The notes under the pieces were generated by a model. That model made no database searches. It saw only the letters and a list, made by a program, of their open reading frames with translations, and was not told the origin of the DNA. Source: a virus (Duplodnaviria > Heunggongvirae > Uroviricota > Caudoviricetes). From it: 37,333 nucleotides of DNA. The stretch lies in IMG/VR virus record IMGVR_UViG_2563366859_000002; one strand, given 5' to 3'. Position 1 is the stretch's first letter; every line of letters starts with the position of its first letter. Positions 3,612 through 34,452 of this stretch are shown in pieces. The position numbers were made by a program, and so were the translations under genes.

Positions 3612-4340
3612 TTACGCCACATTTGAGCCATGTAGCAGGTGTTGTAGTGCTTTAACGCCTTCAGAATTGTAACGGAACGCCTCTACCTGTTTGCTGGAAT
3701 GCGCCGATTTATCCAGGAAGAACTTCCCGTACTGCTCAGTTTTGAGGTTGTTTGCGTTAGCAATGCGACCAATCTTGTTGGCCGTTACTCCAAGCTGCTC
3801 TGCAACCTCCCCTGCTGAGTAGTAATGCTCTTCTATTGCCGGAAGAGGTATTGCATTAAAACCAACAAGCGGGTTGATTATACTTGCTGCCGCTGTCTGC
3901 TTTGCCTCAGGCGCAAGATTTGGCATCAGATCGAACAGATTGGTAACAGCTTCAACCGTCATTTTCAATGTTCGCGCTTGACGATACTCAACAAGTCCAC
4001 TCGCTGATTTACCGCTTTTAATGTGCGCTTCTTGCATACTTTCAAGTTGGTCTACCAGTGAGCGGCGAACGGCTTTTGACTCGCGAGCGGCAACTCGCAA
4101 TGCTTGCTTGATTGACATCTCAATGATAACCATCGAAGTTTTGTTCGCTTTTTGCACTACACTTTTTGTGTAGTGCTCTCCATCCAATTCATCTTCAATT
4201 TTCTCGATGAATTTGTTATTACGAACCTCCGGCTCACCGCACTGTCTACGAGCCTGATTTACCATCTCAAGCAGGCGCTGGCTGTCAATGGTTTTATCCG
4301 TGACAACGGATCCGATGTTTGCTACATTCTTAAAAGTCAT
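3612..4340 (-). CDS. Antirepressor-type regulatory protein, about 242 aa, KilA-C-like C-terminal domain
   Basis: Internal start MTFKNVANIG with SD AAGGAA; C-terminal YYSAGEVAEQLGV...NKIGRIA motif typical of phage Ant/KilAC proteins. Confidence 0.6.
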   Translation of the reverse strand: MTFKNVANIGSVVTDKTIDSQRLLEMVNQARRQCGEPEVRNNKFIEKIEDELDGEHYTKSVVQKANKTSMVIIEMSIKQALRVAARESKAVRRSLVDQLESMQEAHIKSGKSASGLVEYRQARTLKMTVEAVTNLFDLMPNLAPEAKQTAAASIINPLVGFNAIPLPAIEEHYYSAGEVAEQLGVTANKIGRIANANNLKTEQYGKFFLDKSAHSSKQVEAFRYNSEGVKALQHLLHGSNVA

Positions 4341-4410
4341 TAGGCATTCCTTATGTGGTAGTAAGGGTGTGACATAGGCCGCCAGCAGCACACTGGCGGT
4401 TTTCTTTTTG
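4335..4410 (+). ncRNA. Candidate sar-like antisense RNA (about 75 nt) covering the RBS and start of the antirepressor gene
   Basis: Plus-strand promoter-like GTGACA-17bp-TACATT (4300-4328) followed by a strong plus-strand-only terminator at 4379-4410, antisense to the gene start at 4340. Confidence 0.4.
4379..4410 (+). terminator. Rho-independent terminator on the plus strand inside the minus-strand ant region
   Basis: Stem GCCGCCAG/CTGGCGG(T), 7-nt loop, then TTTTCTTTTT; no U-run on the minus-strand reading. Confidence 0.6.
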
Positions 4411-4428
4411 CGCCGTCCGGCGCACCAA

Positions 4429-5055
4429 TCAATGAATCCATTCCTCGCCGCGCAGTTTTGCCAGCATTGGCTGAGCGTTCTTTACGACAAAATTGTTGGT
4501 ATCAAGATTCTTCATTTCACGAAGAAGTGATTTCTTGGTTTCTTCTGACATATAGCGAGTCTCATATGCGATATCGTAAATCCTTCCTGAAAGCTCAGAA
4601 CAAATTTGCTTCATTCCTGGGTAGATGTGTTTGCACATTTGTTGACTCTTCTCCATCCACAATTGTAAGTAGCAGAGATTAACCAGTTCTTCGTCAGTAA
4701 ACTGTTTTGCAATCGGTGAGCATTCTGCCTGCCGATCCAAAATATCCAGCACCCAGCGGCGGAACTCTTTGGCTACCGGAGTGCGAGCAAACATCGCGAT
4801 TAGGTGGGCACCGCGTAGTGAGAAAACTCGCACTTTTTTGCGATAATTTCCTGAGGTACTCACTTCGAGTACCTGAGTCATTCCGGCGCTAAACTCATCG
4901 CTATACTTGTTATAAATCATTGTTACTGCACGACTATTTGCGTATTTAAGTGCAGATGCAATATTAGATGATGTAAACCAAACACCATGCATATCACGGG
5001 TGGGCACCAACTCAACTCCGTGGAAGTTGTAATCTGATTTTGCTACAATATTCAT
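4429..5055 (-). CDS. Bro-N-like domain protein, about 208 aa, possible second antirepressor
   Basis: Internal start MNIVAKSDYNFHGVELV with SD AAGGAA; N-terminal region resembles Bro-N/Ant N-domains (GxWF...A.AL.Y.N). Track ORF N-extension rejected. Confidence 0.5.
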   Translation of the reverse strand: MNIVAKSDYNFHGVELVPTRDMHGVWFTSSNIASALKYANSRAVTMIYNKYSDEFSAGMTQVLEVSTSGNYRKKVRVFSLRGAHLIAMFARTPVAKEFRRWVLDILDRQAECSPIAKQFTDEELVNLCYLQLWMEKSQQMCKHIYPGMKQICSELSGRIYDIAYETRYMSEETKKSLLREMKNLDTNNFVVKNAQPMLAKLRGEEWIH

Positions 5056-30183: not shown

Positions 30184-30295
30184 ATGCCCTCCATAGTAAC
30201 CATGAAACAATAATACGATATGTACTTTTAGAATGCAAACAAAAAAATACATCTTGTGCATGGATGGTTTTAGTACAGAGCGTAATAATAAGGGT
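30184..30295. promoter_or_regulatory. OR region with divergent PR and PRM
   Basis: PR-like TTGCAT-17bp-TATTAT on the minus strand; GTACT(A/T)TTTAG-like motifs shared with the OL region. Confidence 0.55.
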
Positions 30296-30955
30296 ATGAA
30301 AATGAAATGGTATGAACTGGCTAGATCCAGAATGAAAGAGCTCGGCATAACTCAAGAGAAGTTAGCTGAAGAGCTTGGTATGACGCAGGGTGGAATTGGT
30401 CACTGGTTGCGCGGATCTCGTCATCCATCTCTTGACGAGATTGGTGTGGTGTTTAAATACCTTGGTATTGATAATGTCTCATTCAACCACGACGGTACAT
30501 TTTCACCTGTTGGCGAATACTCATCTGCCCCCGTTAAAAAACAATATGAGTACCCTGTTTTTTCTCATGTTCAGGCCGGGATGTTCTCGCCTGAGCTTAT
30601 AACCTTTACCAAAGGTGATGCGGAGAGATGGGTCAGCACAACCAAAAAAGCCAGTGATTGTGCGTTTTGGCTTGAAGTTGAAGGTAATTCCATGACCGCG
30701 CCAACAGGATCCAAGCCAAGCTTTCCTGACGGGATGTTAATTCTCGTTGACCCTGAGCAGGCTGTTGAGCCAGGTGATTTCTGCATAGCCAGACTTGGTG
30801 GTGACGAGTTTACCTTCAAGAAACTGATCAGGGATAGCGGTCAGGTGTTCCTACAGCCACTAAACCCGCAATATCCAATGATTCCATGCAATGATAGCTG
30901 TTCCGTAGTAGGGAAAGTTATCGCCAGCCAGTGGCCTGAAGAGACATTTAGTTAA
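30296..30955 (+). CDS. cI: CI repressor, about 219 aa: heterologous HTH N-domain, lambda-like C-terminal domain
   Basis: C-terminal half ([17 protein letters not shown]...[14 protein letters not shown]) matches lambda CI; N-domain differs. Start at MKMKWYEL is inferred. Confidence 0.85.
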
Positions 30956-30987
30956 CAGCCTCACCACTCTAAAACACACAACAATAA

Positions 30988-31015
30988 CCCGACCTTAGCG
31001 TCGGGTTTTCTTTTT
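30988..31015 (+). terminator. Rho-independent terminator after cI
   Basis: Stem CCCGAC/GTCGGG followed by TTTTCTTTTT. Confidence 0.6.
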
Positions 31016-31059
31016 CCAAAATATAAACCCATTAAATACAAAGCGTTATAAAAAACCAA

Positions 31060-31115
31060 TTATATTTAGAACATTTTGTATTGACTCGATAAAGTACAAA
31101 TCGTACTATTTAGCC
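31060..31115 (+). promoter_or_regulatory. PL promoter with OL operators
   Basis: TTGACT (31081-31086), 17-bp spacer, TACTAT (31104-31109); downstream leader matches lambda PL transcript. Confidence 0.7.
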
Positions 31116-31149
31116 ATCAGCAGGACGCACTGACCACCATGAAGGTGAG

Positions 31150-31179
31150 GCTCTTAAAAATTAAGCCCTGAAGAAGGGC
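31150..31179 (+). promoter_or_regulatory. nutL: boxA GCTCTTAAAAA and boxB GCCCTGAAGAAGGGC
   Basis: Sequence matches lambda nutL as recalled. Confidence 0.85.
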
Positions 31180-31377
31180 AGCATTCAAAGCAGAAGGCTT
31201 TGGGATTGGATGAATGAGCAGGCTGATGCTCGACCAATGTATAAACAGCGCTCATGGCAAGCAGTAACCAATCTGCGCCTCAAGACAGCGTCACTGGTAG
31301 TGCGGGCGCTCTAACCAGTAAGCCGGGGTTCAGCGCCGGCCATCCAATCACCAAAGCTAACTGACAGGAGAATCCAG

Positions 31378-31704
31378 ATGGATGCACAAACACGCCGCCG
31401 CGAACGTCGCGCAGAGAAACAGGCTCAATGGAAAGCAGCAAATCCCCTGTTGGTTGGGGTAAGCGCAAAACCAGTTAACCGCCCTATTCTCTCGCTGAAT
31501 CGCAAACCGAAATCACGAGTAGAAAGCGCACTGAATCCGATAGACCTTACGGCGCTGGCTGAATACCACGAACAGATTGAAAGCAACCTGCAACGTATTG
31601 AGCGCAAGAATCAGCGCACATGGTACAGCAAGCCACGCAGTGAAATGGGTGTGACTTGTGTTGGTCGCCAGAAAATGAAATTAGGCAGCAAACCACTTAT
31701 TTGA
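31378..31704 (+). CDS. N: Antiterminator N, 108 aa
   Basis: MDAQTRRRERRAEKQAQWKAANPLLVGVSAKPVNRP... is near-identical to lambda N. Confidence 0.95.
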   Translation: MDAQTRRRERRAEKQAQWKAANPLLVGVSAKPVNRPILSLNRKPKSRVESALNPIDLTALAEYHEQIESNLQRIERKNQRTWYSKPRSEMGVTCVGRQKMKLGSKPLI

Positions 31705-31712
31705 GGTGATAT

Positions 31713-31976
31713 ATGGACAAGAAAATTAAATCATTGAAGCCAGGAATTGTTATCAGAGACATAAGTGGTGATTACGATACAGAGACATATGATATTTTAT
31801 ATGTGCATGCAGATGGAAAATGTCAGTATTCGAACGACATTTTTAATAATAAAGGTGGTGCCGAAATTGCTGCCACCACAGTTAATAAAGAGTTAGTAGC
31901 TAACGAGTCGTGGGATTATTTTATGCCATCATCCACTTCTATGAACTGGAAAGTGGTTTTGTACATTCCATCATAA
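31713..31976 (+). CDS. Hypothetical 87-aa protein, AT-rich moron directly after N
   Basis: SD GAGGTG; markedly AT-rich relative to flanking lambda-like sequence. Confidence 0.5.
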   Translation: MDKKIKSLKPGIVIRDISGDYDTETYDILYVHADGKCQYSNDIFNNKGGAEIAATTVNKELVANESWDYFMPSSTSMNWKVVLYIPS

Positions 31977-32017
31977 TTGTAGCTGCCGTTCAAAAATGAA
32001 AGTAAATCTAACATCAC

Positions 32018-32045
32018 AGGCCGCATAGTCGGCCTTTATTTTTAA
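32018..32045 (+). terminator. Rho-independent terminator (tL1-like)
   Basis: Stem AGGCCG/CGGCCT followed by TTATTTTT. Confidence 0.55.
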
Positions 32046-32053
32046 GGTGCTAT

Positions 32054-32296
32054 ATGAAAATTAAAACTATGGGCGCAAGCCCATTGAGCGGTCGTATTTT
32101 TCAAGGAACATTAAACACTGAAAAAGGAATGTGGGTAGGAAAGAAAGAAGATGTCACCGAGCAAGCGGTTAAGGCAGTAGCTGAACACCTGATGATAAAA
32201 GACCAGAAATACGCATACGAAACGAAGGATGGCAAATGGCTGATAATAAGCCATCAACTGGTTGATAAATTACCAGAAGAGTTTATTGCTGGTTAA
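32054..32296 (+). CDS. Hypothetical 80-aa protein
   Basis: SD AAGGTG 6 nt before ATG; lies between two terminators. Confidence 0.5.
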   Translation: MKIKTMGASPLSGRIFQGTLNTEKGMWVGKKEDVTEQAVKAVAEHLMIKDQKYAYETKDGKWLIISHQLVDKLPEEFIAG

Positions 32297-32333
32297 ATTC
32301 ACCTTGGAACAAACAACAGAATAAACACTGCGC

Positions 32334-32363
32334 TGTGTATTCATTCCAACGAGTGAATACACG
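32334..32363. repeat. Perfect 9-bp inverted repeat GTGTATTCA...TGAATACAC with 12-nt spacer
   Basis: Read directly from the sequence. Confidence 0.7.
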
Positions 32364-32424
32364 GAGCAATGTCGCTCGTAACTAAACAGGAGCCGACTTG
32401 TTCTGATTATTGGAAATCTTCTTT

Positions 32425-32450
32425 GCCCTCCAATGTGAGGGCCTTTTTAT
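32425..32450 (+). terminator. Rho-independent terminator upstream of cIII
   Basis: Stem GCCCTC/GAGGGC followed by CTTTTTAT. Confidence 0.6.
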
Positions 32451-32514
32451 ATGCATACCAATAACGCTTCACTCGAGGCGTTTTCGTTATGCAATCAAAC
32501 AGAAGGAGCATCCT

Positions 32515-32685
32515 ATGCAACAGTTCGCTATTGCAGGGGCGGCATCGGTTCGCCCTTTCAACCCGATTTTATCGGTACAGCATTCACGAAAAAACATTTT
32601 AACCGGAGCAGACTTTAAACAACCAAGAATGAAAAGTTTGCTCGAAAAGCTTTGGGATATTTTGAAACAACAAGGCCGTCCATGA
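32515..32685 (+). CDS. cIII: CIII-like protein, 56 aa
   Basis: N-terminus MQQFAIAG resembles lambda CIII MQYAIAG; SD AAGGAG. Confidence 0.6.
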   Translation: MQQFAIAGAASVRPFNPILSVQHSRKNILTGADFKQPRMKSLLEKLWDILKQQGRP

Positions 32686-32789
32686 GTTTTACGGATAACT
32701 GGTCAGACGAAGAATTCATTCGTCAGATGAACAAAATGCTCAATCAGCACAAAGAACAGGAGAAAGATGATGATTCTGACTCTGAATGA
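32682..32789 (+). CDS. Possible small ORF, 35 aa, at the kil position
   Basis: ATGA overlap with the cIII stop; acidic C-terminus. Weak support. Confidence 0.2.
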   Translation: MSFTDNWSDEEFIRQMNKMLNQHKEQEKDDDSDSE

Positions 32790-33078
32790 TAAGCGTGAAA
32801 TATCGCAAATAATCGCAAGTTTTACTGATGAAGATTACGAACGAATTAACAGTGAAGTTGATCGCCTCTGCAAACGTTGCGACCCAATAAGCGAAATGCT
32901 TCGCTCATATAAACCAGATGAACACACTAAGGACGCTATCGACTGGCTGGAAGATGATGACTGTAACTATCAGGAAAAAGCCGCTGAATGGTTCTGGTAT
33001 GCAATAACCGAAAGAGTTAAGGCTGAATATGCCTTCGCAATATTTAAACGCAGACACATTTTTGGAGAAGCAGCATGA
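32767..33078 (+). CDS. Hypothetical 103-aa protein upstream of recT
   Basis: ORF overlapping the recT start; acidic, two Cys pairs. Confidence 0.45.
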   Translation: MMILTLNDKREISQIIASFTDEDYERINSEVDRLCKRCDPISEMLRSYKPDEHTKDAIDWLEDDDCNYQEKAAEWFWYAITERVKAEYAFAIFKRRHIFGEAA

Positions 33079-33986
33079 GCAATATCGTTGAATTCGTTAA
33101 ACAGCAAGAGCAGTTATTCTGCGGAGCATTGACTGAACAGACGGTGACATGGGCTAAGGAAAGCCAGTTTGCAATTCAGTATTTCCAGAAAAACGATTAC
33201 CTGGCTAAAACAGCACTGGCAAATCCAACCAGCGCACAGAACGCCATCATCAATGTTGCGGCGATCGGCATCACCTTAAACCCTGCAAGCAAACTGGCTT
33301 ATCTGGTTCCGCGCGATGGCATGGTTTGCCTTGATATCAGCTATATGGGATTGCTCCATATTGCAATGGAGTCTGGTGTTATCTCATGGGGTCAGGCAAA
33401 ACTTGTTCATGCTAACGATACCTATGAGTCAAACGGGCTTGATAAAGCACCAACCCATAAATACAACGCCTTCGGTGATCGTGGTGATATCGTTGGCGTT
33501 TACTGCACAGTTAAGACGCCGGCAGGTGATTATCTAACGGAAGAGATGAGTCTGGCTGAAATTGAGGCTGTAAGGAAAACAAGCAAGGCAGCATTCAGCG
33601 ATAAAGGACCATGGGTAAATCACTGGAATGAGATGGCGCGAAAGACGGTCGTAAAGCGTGCAAGCAAGTATTGGCCTAAGGCATCACGTCTTGATAGTGC
33701 TATTCACGTACTAAACGAAGAAGAAGGTGTATGGACTGAACCAGTTATGCCGCACAAATCAGAGGAAGATATCCGCGAAGATGAACGGAAACGCCAGCAG
33801 GAAATAACGGATAAAGCACAACTTCTTTGTGATGAAATGGCTCAGGCAGAAAACATGGATGATTTGAAGCGATATTTTGCAGAAGCATATCGCCTGACAT
33901 CTGGAATGAAATTGCAGCAGAACATACAAGCCATTTACATAGAATGCAAAGCGAAACTGGAGGTTGCCAGTGAGCAAACTGTATGA
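33075..33986 (+). CDS. recT: RecT-family single-strand annealing recombinase, 303 aa
   Basis: Motif GPWVNHWNEMARKTVVKRASKYWP parallels Rac RecT GPWVTHWEEMAKKTAIRRLFKYLP. Confidence 0.85.
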   Translation: MSNIVEFVKQQEQLFCGALTEQTVTWAKESQFAIQYFQKNDYLAKTALANPTSAQNAIINVAAIGITLNPASKLAYLVPRDGMVCLDISYMGLLHIAMESGVISWGQAKLVHANDTYESNGLDKAPTHKYNAFGDRGDIVGVYCTVKTPAGDYLTEEMSLAEIEAVRKTSKAAFSDKGPWVNHWNEMARKTVVKRASKYWPKASRLDSAIHVLNEEEGVWTEPVMPHKSEEDIREDERKRQQEITDKAQLLCDEMAQAENMDDLKRYFAEAYRLTSGMKLQQNIQAIYIECKAKLEVASEQTV

Positions 33987-34452
33987 AATAGCTAATGAAT
34001 ACGCAAAATTGATGGATTCAGATTTAGAACCAGAGATGATTGCTGACACAATAGAAGGCATGGAAGGAGAATTTACCGATAAAATAGAGCAACTTCTCGC
34101 CATTATTAAAAATGAATCTGGTTATGCTGAACGCCTCAAGGAAGAGGCAAAGTCACTAAATGAGCGAGCCGCAGTAATTCAAAATAAGATTGACAGCATC
34201 AAATCATATATAGCGTCATCGCTTGAAATGGTTGGCAAGAAAAAGATTCGAGCAGGTATTCACCAGGTAACAATCCGCAAACCGTCAGAAACTGTAGAAA
34301 TCATCGACTCAAGCGCCCTTCCTCCTGAATACGTTGAGTTTGAAACGACAATTAAAGCCGACAAGTTGGCAATCAAACACCAACTAAAAGCAGGAATAAA
34401 TATCCCCGGTGCTCAACTCAAAGTTGGGAAACCTTCACTTCTTATCAAATAA
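33970..34452 (+). CDS. Gp157-like protein, about 160 aa, GTG start; recombinase-associated
   Basis: SD GGAGG 6 nt before GTG; position directly after recT. Family assignment from memory only. Confidence 0.4.
   Translation: MSKLYEIANEYAKLMDSDLEPEMIADTIEGMEGEFTDKIEQLLAIIKNESGYAERLKEEAKSLNERAAVIQNKIDSIKSYIASSLEMVGKKKIRAGIHQVTIRKPSETVEIIDSSALPPEYVEFETTIKADKLAIKHQLKAGINIPGAQLKVGKPSLLIK

Follow-up and report, generated by a model that had tools for sequence, protein, structure and literature searches.

In phage lambda, all genes of the pL operon except N are dispensable, and the need for ral is confined to hosts with type I restriction (PMC10695390). The activity of Ral on type I restriction-modification has been experimentally established (PMC10695390 and references therein). 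Here, we describe the corresponding interval of a viral record of 37,333 nucleotides (nt), IMGVR_UViG_2563366859_000002, in which two small genes, orf87 and orf80, lie between a lambda-like N gene and cIII. The whole record is referred to as the window, and all coordinates are positions in it unless stated otherwise. In lambdoid phages, the exchange of single-gene cassettes at joints is established mosaicism, as known from comparisons of HK97, HK022, and HK620. The term moron, which a preliminary description of this locus applied to both genes, reportedly stems from the HK97 and HK022 genome comparisons by Hendrix and colleagues. Judging from homology breakpoints in related loci, orf87 and orf80 are two unrelated, independently exchangeable accessory cassettes in the N-to-cIII slot of the pL operon of a lambdoid E. 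coli phage.

Both genes were found on the + strand, at 31713..31976 (orf87, 87 amino acids, aa) and 32054..32296 (orf80, 80 aa), in agreement with the preliminary description, which is largely borne out in its observations and partly in its interpretation. To place them in context, we collected about 120 related loci (designated by L numbers), classified their genes by profiles built here, and mapped homology breakpoints by BLASTN. The N-cIII interval of these relatives holds ral, sieB, ea10/DUF2528, or other small genes, which bears out the proposal that the slot carries ral/sieB-type functions. The same comparison confirmed gene swapping across related prophages, with both window genes being variable insertions between segments that are adjacent in relatives: positions 32036 and 32304 for orf80, and for orf87 an N linker that is elsewhere followed by ral, by a gene of the DUF7446 family to which orf80 belongs, or by others.

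The orf87 cassette extends from 31685, 20 nt before the stop of N, to 32036-32043 within the T-tract of a terminator. At its left joint (31685..31712, + strand; GCAGCAAACCACTTATTTGAGGTGATAT), the N stop codon TGA overlaps the GAGGTG Shine-Dalgarno sequence of orf87, and it is at 31685 that homology begins in L018-L023. The right joint coincides with the predicted intrinsic terminator of the cassette (32018..32043, + strand; AGGCCGCATAGTCGGCCT + TTATTTTT), located by pattern and folding. Its stem (32018-32035) plus TTATTTTT folds with -9.7 kcal/mol (z = -3.6), and 0 of 200 shuffled sequences folded equally well. Homology of the cassette stops at 32036-32043 in every related locus examined, and terminators are also present at or just past the stop codon of orf87 homologues in the diverged prophages L007, L010, L011, and L025. 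The cassette, at 97-100% identity, occurs behind at least four different N alleles, with downstream neighbours that vary between ea10/DUF2528, uncharacterised genes, and the cIII spacer directly.

Comparison of window positions 31685-31712 with L046-L095 around position 3970-4000 identified a joint, GCAGCAAACCACTTATTTGAGG, that comprises the last codons of N and the Shine-Dalgarno sequence. Depending on the phage, it precedes orf87, DUF7446, or a short open reading frame (ORF) upstream of ral. In many other loci, DUF7446 directly follows N via GCAGCAAACCACTTATTTGAGG...ATG, the very joint used by orf87 in the window, and in L003 the left joint of orf87 precedes other genes. Because this joint stands before such different genes, the position directly after N is, as far as its sequence can tell, a shared and translationally coupled slot.

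The orf80 cassette (about 32037/32044-32303, + strand) is an insertion comprising orf80 and its Shine-Dalgarno linker, and nothing else. In L002, L016, L019, L021, and L023, which are without it, window position 32036 is joined to 32304 with a gap of at most 3 nt. In L003, in strain 04-00955, and in many IMG/VR contigs, the cassette sits after ral and the ral terminator. It is followed in the window by a backbone spacer (32304..32452, + strand) whose counterpart in lambda, the ral-ea10 intergenic region (33923-34071), is 94.6% identical, and this spacer is found in relatives with or without orf80. A query spanning 32040-32460 was matched in part by 2253 E. coli records, but no more than 44 E. 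coli genomes contain orf80; hence, the 32304-32452 segment is widespread backbone. The predicted intrinsic terminator within the spacer (32425-32450, stem 32425-32442, + strand), 129 nt past the orf80 stop codon, is by the same homology part of the backbone and no part of an orf80 unit. The earlier statement that each gene is followed and bracketed by terminators is thus correct only for the downstream side of orf87 (32018-32043). No terminator is found in the 8-nt gap between N and orf87, so that orf87 is not bracketed, and orf80 has no terminator of its own.

The ends of other occupants of the slot resemble these joints. At the end of lambda ral there is a similar hairpin with a T-tract (AGGCTGCC..GGCCTTTATTTTT), and the same backbone spacer comes next. 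In Salmonella, DUF7446 alleles have the end ...GCATAGTCGGCCTT, a match to the 3' part of the terminator hairpin behind orf87 in the window. L025 has one more small gene between its orf87 homologue and DUF7446 (4258-4704), with copies of a 32-nt joint, CGTTCGCCGCGATAAGGCYAAGAGGATTTATG, on either side; this looks like the footprint of a cassette insertion by recombination at linkers. Taken together, the shared joints, the L025 duplication, and the ends of ral and DUF7446 indicate that the interval is built from single-gene cassettes recombining at joints. In the mechanism we propose, each cassette would consist of a ribosome-binding linker and one small ORF, with a terminator added in the case of orf87. 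Swapping would proceed by recombination at short conserved joints of two kinds: the last 20 nt of N with the Shine-Dalgarno sequence, and intrinsic terminators with their hairpins and T-tracts. The whole orf87-orf80 combination was found in no complete E. coli genome and no deposited phage record (best coverage 76%), and only one IMG/VR contig carries it, 100% identical over 2301 nt. Cassette mosaicism between N and cIII is ordinary, the interval being a known hot spot, and both protein families are already catalogued.

The product of orf87 is a member of phrog_33140, a rare phage family, which it matches over its full length (E = 3.4e-51, positions 1-87 against 1-88 of 88); no match was found in Pfam, NCBIfam, or PADLOC. 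Of 5426 complete E. coli genomes, 8 carry the gene. Among the 15 matches obtained by searching 1.84 billion representatives exhaustively, 11 are small proteins of the orf87 family (54-117 aa), including several fragments, and four are long proteins made of tandem repeats (416-5511 aa, 4-21 matched stretches). Of these four, the two inspected, P0075 and P0076, are low-complexity tandem-repeat translations with nonsensical Pfam matches and were discarded as artefacts. A profile search yielded 34 homologue clusters, every one of them small proteins of enterobacterial prophages. Homologues with 42% identity are also encoded by the virulent Klebsiella phages KB57 (Vequintavirinae) and KpS8, in KB57 within an array of small genes. 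The family alignment (A3, 25 sequences) has 10 invariant columns, and the AlphaFold 2 (AF2) model of orf87 reaches a predicted local distance difference test score (pLDDT) of 90.1 and a predicted template modelling score of 0.81. Diverged homologues with conserved motifs and a confident model show that orf87 is a real gene.

In case of orf80, the product is a full-length member of DUF7446 (PF24233; phrog_1578, E = 1e-40) that shows no difference from the family, scoring 100.2 bits against a Pfam gathering cut-off of 24.1 (E = 5.9e-29, model positions 2-70 of 70). The ratio of nonsynonymous to synonymous substitution rates against other DUF7446 alleles is mostly 0.02-0.3, and 13 residues of the family are invariant, W27, D33, E44, and H45 among them; orf80 is a real gene under purifying selection. 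Its AlphaFold model (pLDDT 90.5) has a topology of three strands, a helix, and two strands. DUF7446 homologues occur in 282 phage records, the matches listed being mostly from Ackermannviridae, with a few from lambdoid and P22-like phages. The Ackermannviridae homologues (CBA120 orf178, Maynard, Ag3, and Dickeya phages) share 49-61% identity with orf80, and in these virulent phages the genes lie within arrays of small genes. In CBA120 (L006, 1051-5585), the DUF7446 gene shares 4 nt with orf179, its upstream neighbour. It belongs to a series of small genes, all on one strand, that lies downstream of the gene for the major capsid protein, and a SLOG-family (YAcAr) protein is encoded nearby. No mention of DUF7446, of the PHROG identifiers, or of the RefSeq accessions was found in the literature searched; the "orf178" of the LIMEstone paper follows an unrelated numbering. 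The two window proteins belong to unrelated families, their profiles aligning with an hhalign probability of 0.25%.

The arrangement of the locus offers a prediction of how the two genes would be expressed. A pL-like early-left promoter (TTGACT-17-TACTAT, 31081..31109, + strand) is the only + strand sigma-70-like site 5' of N and lies just upstream of a nutL segment in common with lambda: window 31115-31204 is 98.9% identical to lambda and spans its annotated NutL (BLASTN). Within nutL (31150..31179, + strand), a boxA-like GCTCTTA occupies 31150-31156 and boxB (GCCCTGAAGAAGGGC) 31165-31179, the boxB hairpin folding with -9.4 kcal/mol. The antiterminator N follows (31378..31704, + strand, 108 aa), identified by PF11438 (N36, E = 1.7e-26) and phrog_271 and with 93.7% nucleotide identity to lambda N. 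Both orf87 and orf80 are on the pL-transcribed strand downstream of nutL, in line with the earlier placement of both genes in the N-antiterminated early transcript. A consensus scan detected no sigma-70-like promoter upstream of either gene, the only + strand sites being 31081 (pL) and 32786, although weak or non-sigma-70 promoters may escape a simple consensus of this kind. Since neither has a promoter of its own, both genes would be transcribed from pL upon infection or induction.

The order of terminators further predicts the timing. A pattern scan found no intrinsic terminator on the + strand from pL to 32018. Given that orf87 starts 8 nt after N, that its Shine-Dalgarno sequence overlaps the N stop, and that it is upstream of the first terminator, it is probably co-expressed with N before antitermination and would be an immediate-early product. 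The slot directly after N would then be an immediate-early position used interchangeably by different cassettes. From orf80 onwards, one to three intrinsic terminators have to be passed by transcripts from pL, for which N should be required; orf80 is thus a likely delayed-early gene. The abundance of terminator-like sites is real, with 7 observed in 30900-33200 against 2.5 +/- 1.5 expected from shuffles. Overall, we hold this anatomical and expression description of the locus to be very probably correct. Two points weigh on the other side: the immediate- and delayed-early timing is based on predicted intrinsic terminators only, and the simple-consensus scan could overlook weak or non-sigma-70 promoters. 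Each gene additionally holds a minus-strand feature that may be a chance occurrence or an antisense element, namely a promoter-like site inside orf87 (31945-31918) and, inside the 5' end of orf80 (32069-32084), a terminator-like hairpin ATGGGCTTGCGCCCAT with a T-rich tail.

What the two proteins do can be approached by homology and by analogy. Searches with lambda Ral, SieB, Ea10, Kil, cIII, and Gam (phmmer) assigned none of them to orf87 or orf80, in agreement with Pfam and PHROGs, so that neither is a known lambda early gene. The two proteins have no match to known anti-defence or defence families in Pfam, PHROGs, NCBIfam, or PADLOC profiles. Of the checks suggested earlier, the profile searches assigned families (phrog_33140 and PF24233), whereas neither AlphaFold model had an informative structural match. 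Both products are small, stably folded by their AF2 models, and under purifying selection, and neither falls into a recognisable family of enzymes or DNA-binding proteins. By analogy with ral and the other genes of the slot, they would most likely bind a host protein early in the lytic cycle and neutralise or redirect it. Homologues in obligately lytic phages point to a function in the lytic cycle over expression from a prophage. The explanation we favour as a whole, namely two exchangeable pL-operon cassettes that are expressed early and encode host-protein-binding accessory proteins, appears to us reasonably probable. An anti-defence or host-takeover role specifically, argued from the same analogy, has in our estimate slightly less than an even chance. 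A bolder extension, in which orf87 founds a new immediate-early counter-defence family (compare T7, which makes Ocr first) and DUF7446 is a second widespread inhibitor in temperate lambdoid and virulent Ackermannviridae phages, is rather unlikely.

Alternatively, the proteins might serve the programme of the phage itself, in recombination, replication, transcription, or the lysis-lysogeny decision, as do cIII, kil, gam, and ea10, rather than counter-immunity. They share an operon with cIII, a kil-position ORF, and RecT, and the invariant D33, E44, and H45 of DUF7446 form a pattern that fits a conserved biochemical function better. Homologues of orf87 and orf80 are absent from plasmids, save for one weak partial Stenotrophomonas match, unlike the situation for many anti-restriction genes. 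The wide occurrence of DUF7446 across phage records, mostly Ackermannviridae among those listed, fits this alternative as well and, weighing against counter-defence, hints at a more general function than such a niche. We regard a role in the programme of the phage itself as unlikely, if still deserving of attention.

The composition of the genes bears on a further alternative, that of classical morons, which would be transcribed autonomously and expressed from the prophage for the benefit of the lysogen through superinfection exclusion or lysogenic conversion, like sieB and rex. The GC content of orf87 is 35.2%, in the 1.3rd percentile of 264-nt windows, compared to 46.4% for the whole window and 50.2% for N. 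Members of the orf87 family elsewhere are also 0.6-8 points, mostly 4-8, under the GC content of their own loci. The GC content of orf80 is 39.9%, near the 10th percentile of windows of equal size, and cannot be told apart from that of the flanking early-left genes (cIII, orf45, orf103, and orf162, 39-43%), such that the AT-richness attributed to the locus holds for orf87 and not for orf80, which matches its neighbours. The low GC content of orf87 and its family, the terminator that follows orf87, the terminators found on both sides of the L011 homologue, and the presence of sieB in the same slot of lambda and P22 would all suit morons. However, no promoter-like site precedes either gene, the Shine-Dalgarno sequence of orf87 overlaps the N stop, only orf87 owns a terminator, and the gaps upstream of the two genes measure 8 nt and 77 nt, the second one filled by the terminator. 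Moreover, both genes run in the direction of pL transcription, whereas sieB runs the other way from a promoter of its own, and homologues are present in strictly virulent phages, which never form lysogens. The label of morons is hence not upheld, and the classical moron explanation strikes us as quite improbable. With homologues in virulent phages, no promoters of their own, and a position on the pL-transcribed strand, orf87 and orf80 can be better understood as early lytic-cycle accessory proteins than as promoter-bearing genes of lysogenic conversion.

That orf87 and orf80 form a two-gene functional module is highly improbable: an orf87-family gene is directly followed by DUF7446 in the window and in the L007 (Enterobacter) and L010 (Pseudocitrobacter) prophages, with DUF7446 at most 1.5 kb away in L025 and L039 and with three different DUF7446 alleles of 39-49% mutual identity involved, yet only 1 of 80 IMG/VR DUF7446 loci has an orf87 relative (the contig of the window itself), about 30 orf87-family loci are without DUF7446, orf80 was not adjacent in any of the 8 complete E. 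coli genomes that have orf87, and a terminator separates the two genes, so that common use of the slot explains their adjacency better than functional coupling.

The remainder of the early-left region follows a lambda-like plan. On the + strand, the order after N is orf87, terminator, orf80, a 218-nt spacer, cIII, the kil-position ORF, orf103, and RecT. The cIII gene (32515..32685, + strand, 56 aa; phrog_550, E = 1e-22) has a start region homologous to that of lambda cIII. Its end is overlapped by the 45-aa ORF in the kil position (32652-32789; phrog_17766, E = 1e-15), and the 103-aa orf103 (32767-33078; phrog_3486) lies just 5' of RecT; both ORFs are about 98% conserved in many E. coli prophages. 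Within the spacer, an exact junction at 32452/32453 fuses the ral-ea10 spacer directly to the ea10-cIII spacer, at a point where relatives including lambda have the ea10/DUF2528 gene. A third intrinsic terminator-like hairpin (32463..32490, stem 32463-32482, + strand; -9.9 kcal/mol) is immediately 5' of cIII, in a segment homologous to the ea10-cIII spacer of lambda, and as a result of the fusion, the terminator-like hairpins at 32425 and 32463 are only 20 nt apart. The backbone spacer also contains a strong 17-bp hairpin without a T-tail (32329-32368; -23.8 kcal/mol, z = -6.8), which could be an RNA-processing or RNase III-type site. An Rfam scan of 30900-33100 had no accepted family, the mir-137 match at this hairpin being spurious.

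Upstream of N, a cI-like repressor gene (30233-30955) lies on the + strand. The cI-to-N interval of the window (30956-31377) measures just 422 nt and holds no defence-type gene of the sort seen in relatives. There, the interval carries cargo such as a P63C-domain protein, RexA/RexB, a BstA_C protein, and a DUF1828 protein (L001, 756-1667; L002, 303-1592; L010, 1897-2820; L007, 1582-2894).

The analysis provides cassette boundaries at base-pair level, an immediate-early slot as a prediction, and two well-folded candidates for anti-defence screening. The joint sequences offer a base-pair-level example of single-gene cassette swapping just downstream of N in lambdoid phages. If the counter-defence reading is true, the slot right after N would be a dedicated first-strike position for swappable inhibitors, and if either protein inhibits a host defence, the catalogue of anti-defence proteins would gain a new family. 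An inhibitory DUF7446 would be especially useful, since it is also carried by Ackermannviridae, some of which are candidates for biocontrol and therapy.

Compared with known systems, orf87 and orf80 share with lambdoid morons the character of extra DNA between genes adjacent in relatives, and orf87 also the atypical composition and the 3' terminator. They differ in that no promoter of their own was detected by the scan, that orf87 is translationally linked to N, that orf80 lacks a terminator, and that pL would be expected to drive their expression during the lytic cycle instead of their being active in the prophage. The P22 genes orf78, orf87, and 17, located between ral and c3, occupy the same slot with a similar size, and gene 17 is annotated as permitting growth on Fels-2 lysogens, an example of counter-exclusion in this position. 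As homologues they were rejected, with no significant match by BLASTP or hhalign (probability 0.9% for gp17). The comparison extends furthest for lambda ral. Although Ral has no sequence similarity to either protein and its function is experimental, unlike the role assigned to orf87 and orf80 by analogy, it is likewise a small (66 aa), non-essential early protein, and its gene takes the same place after N within the pL operon. The ral gene has the same kind of terminator hairpin with T-tract and the same backbone spacer, and DUF7446 is often found directly after it.
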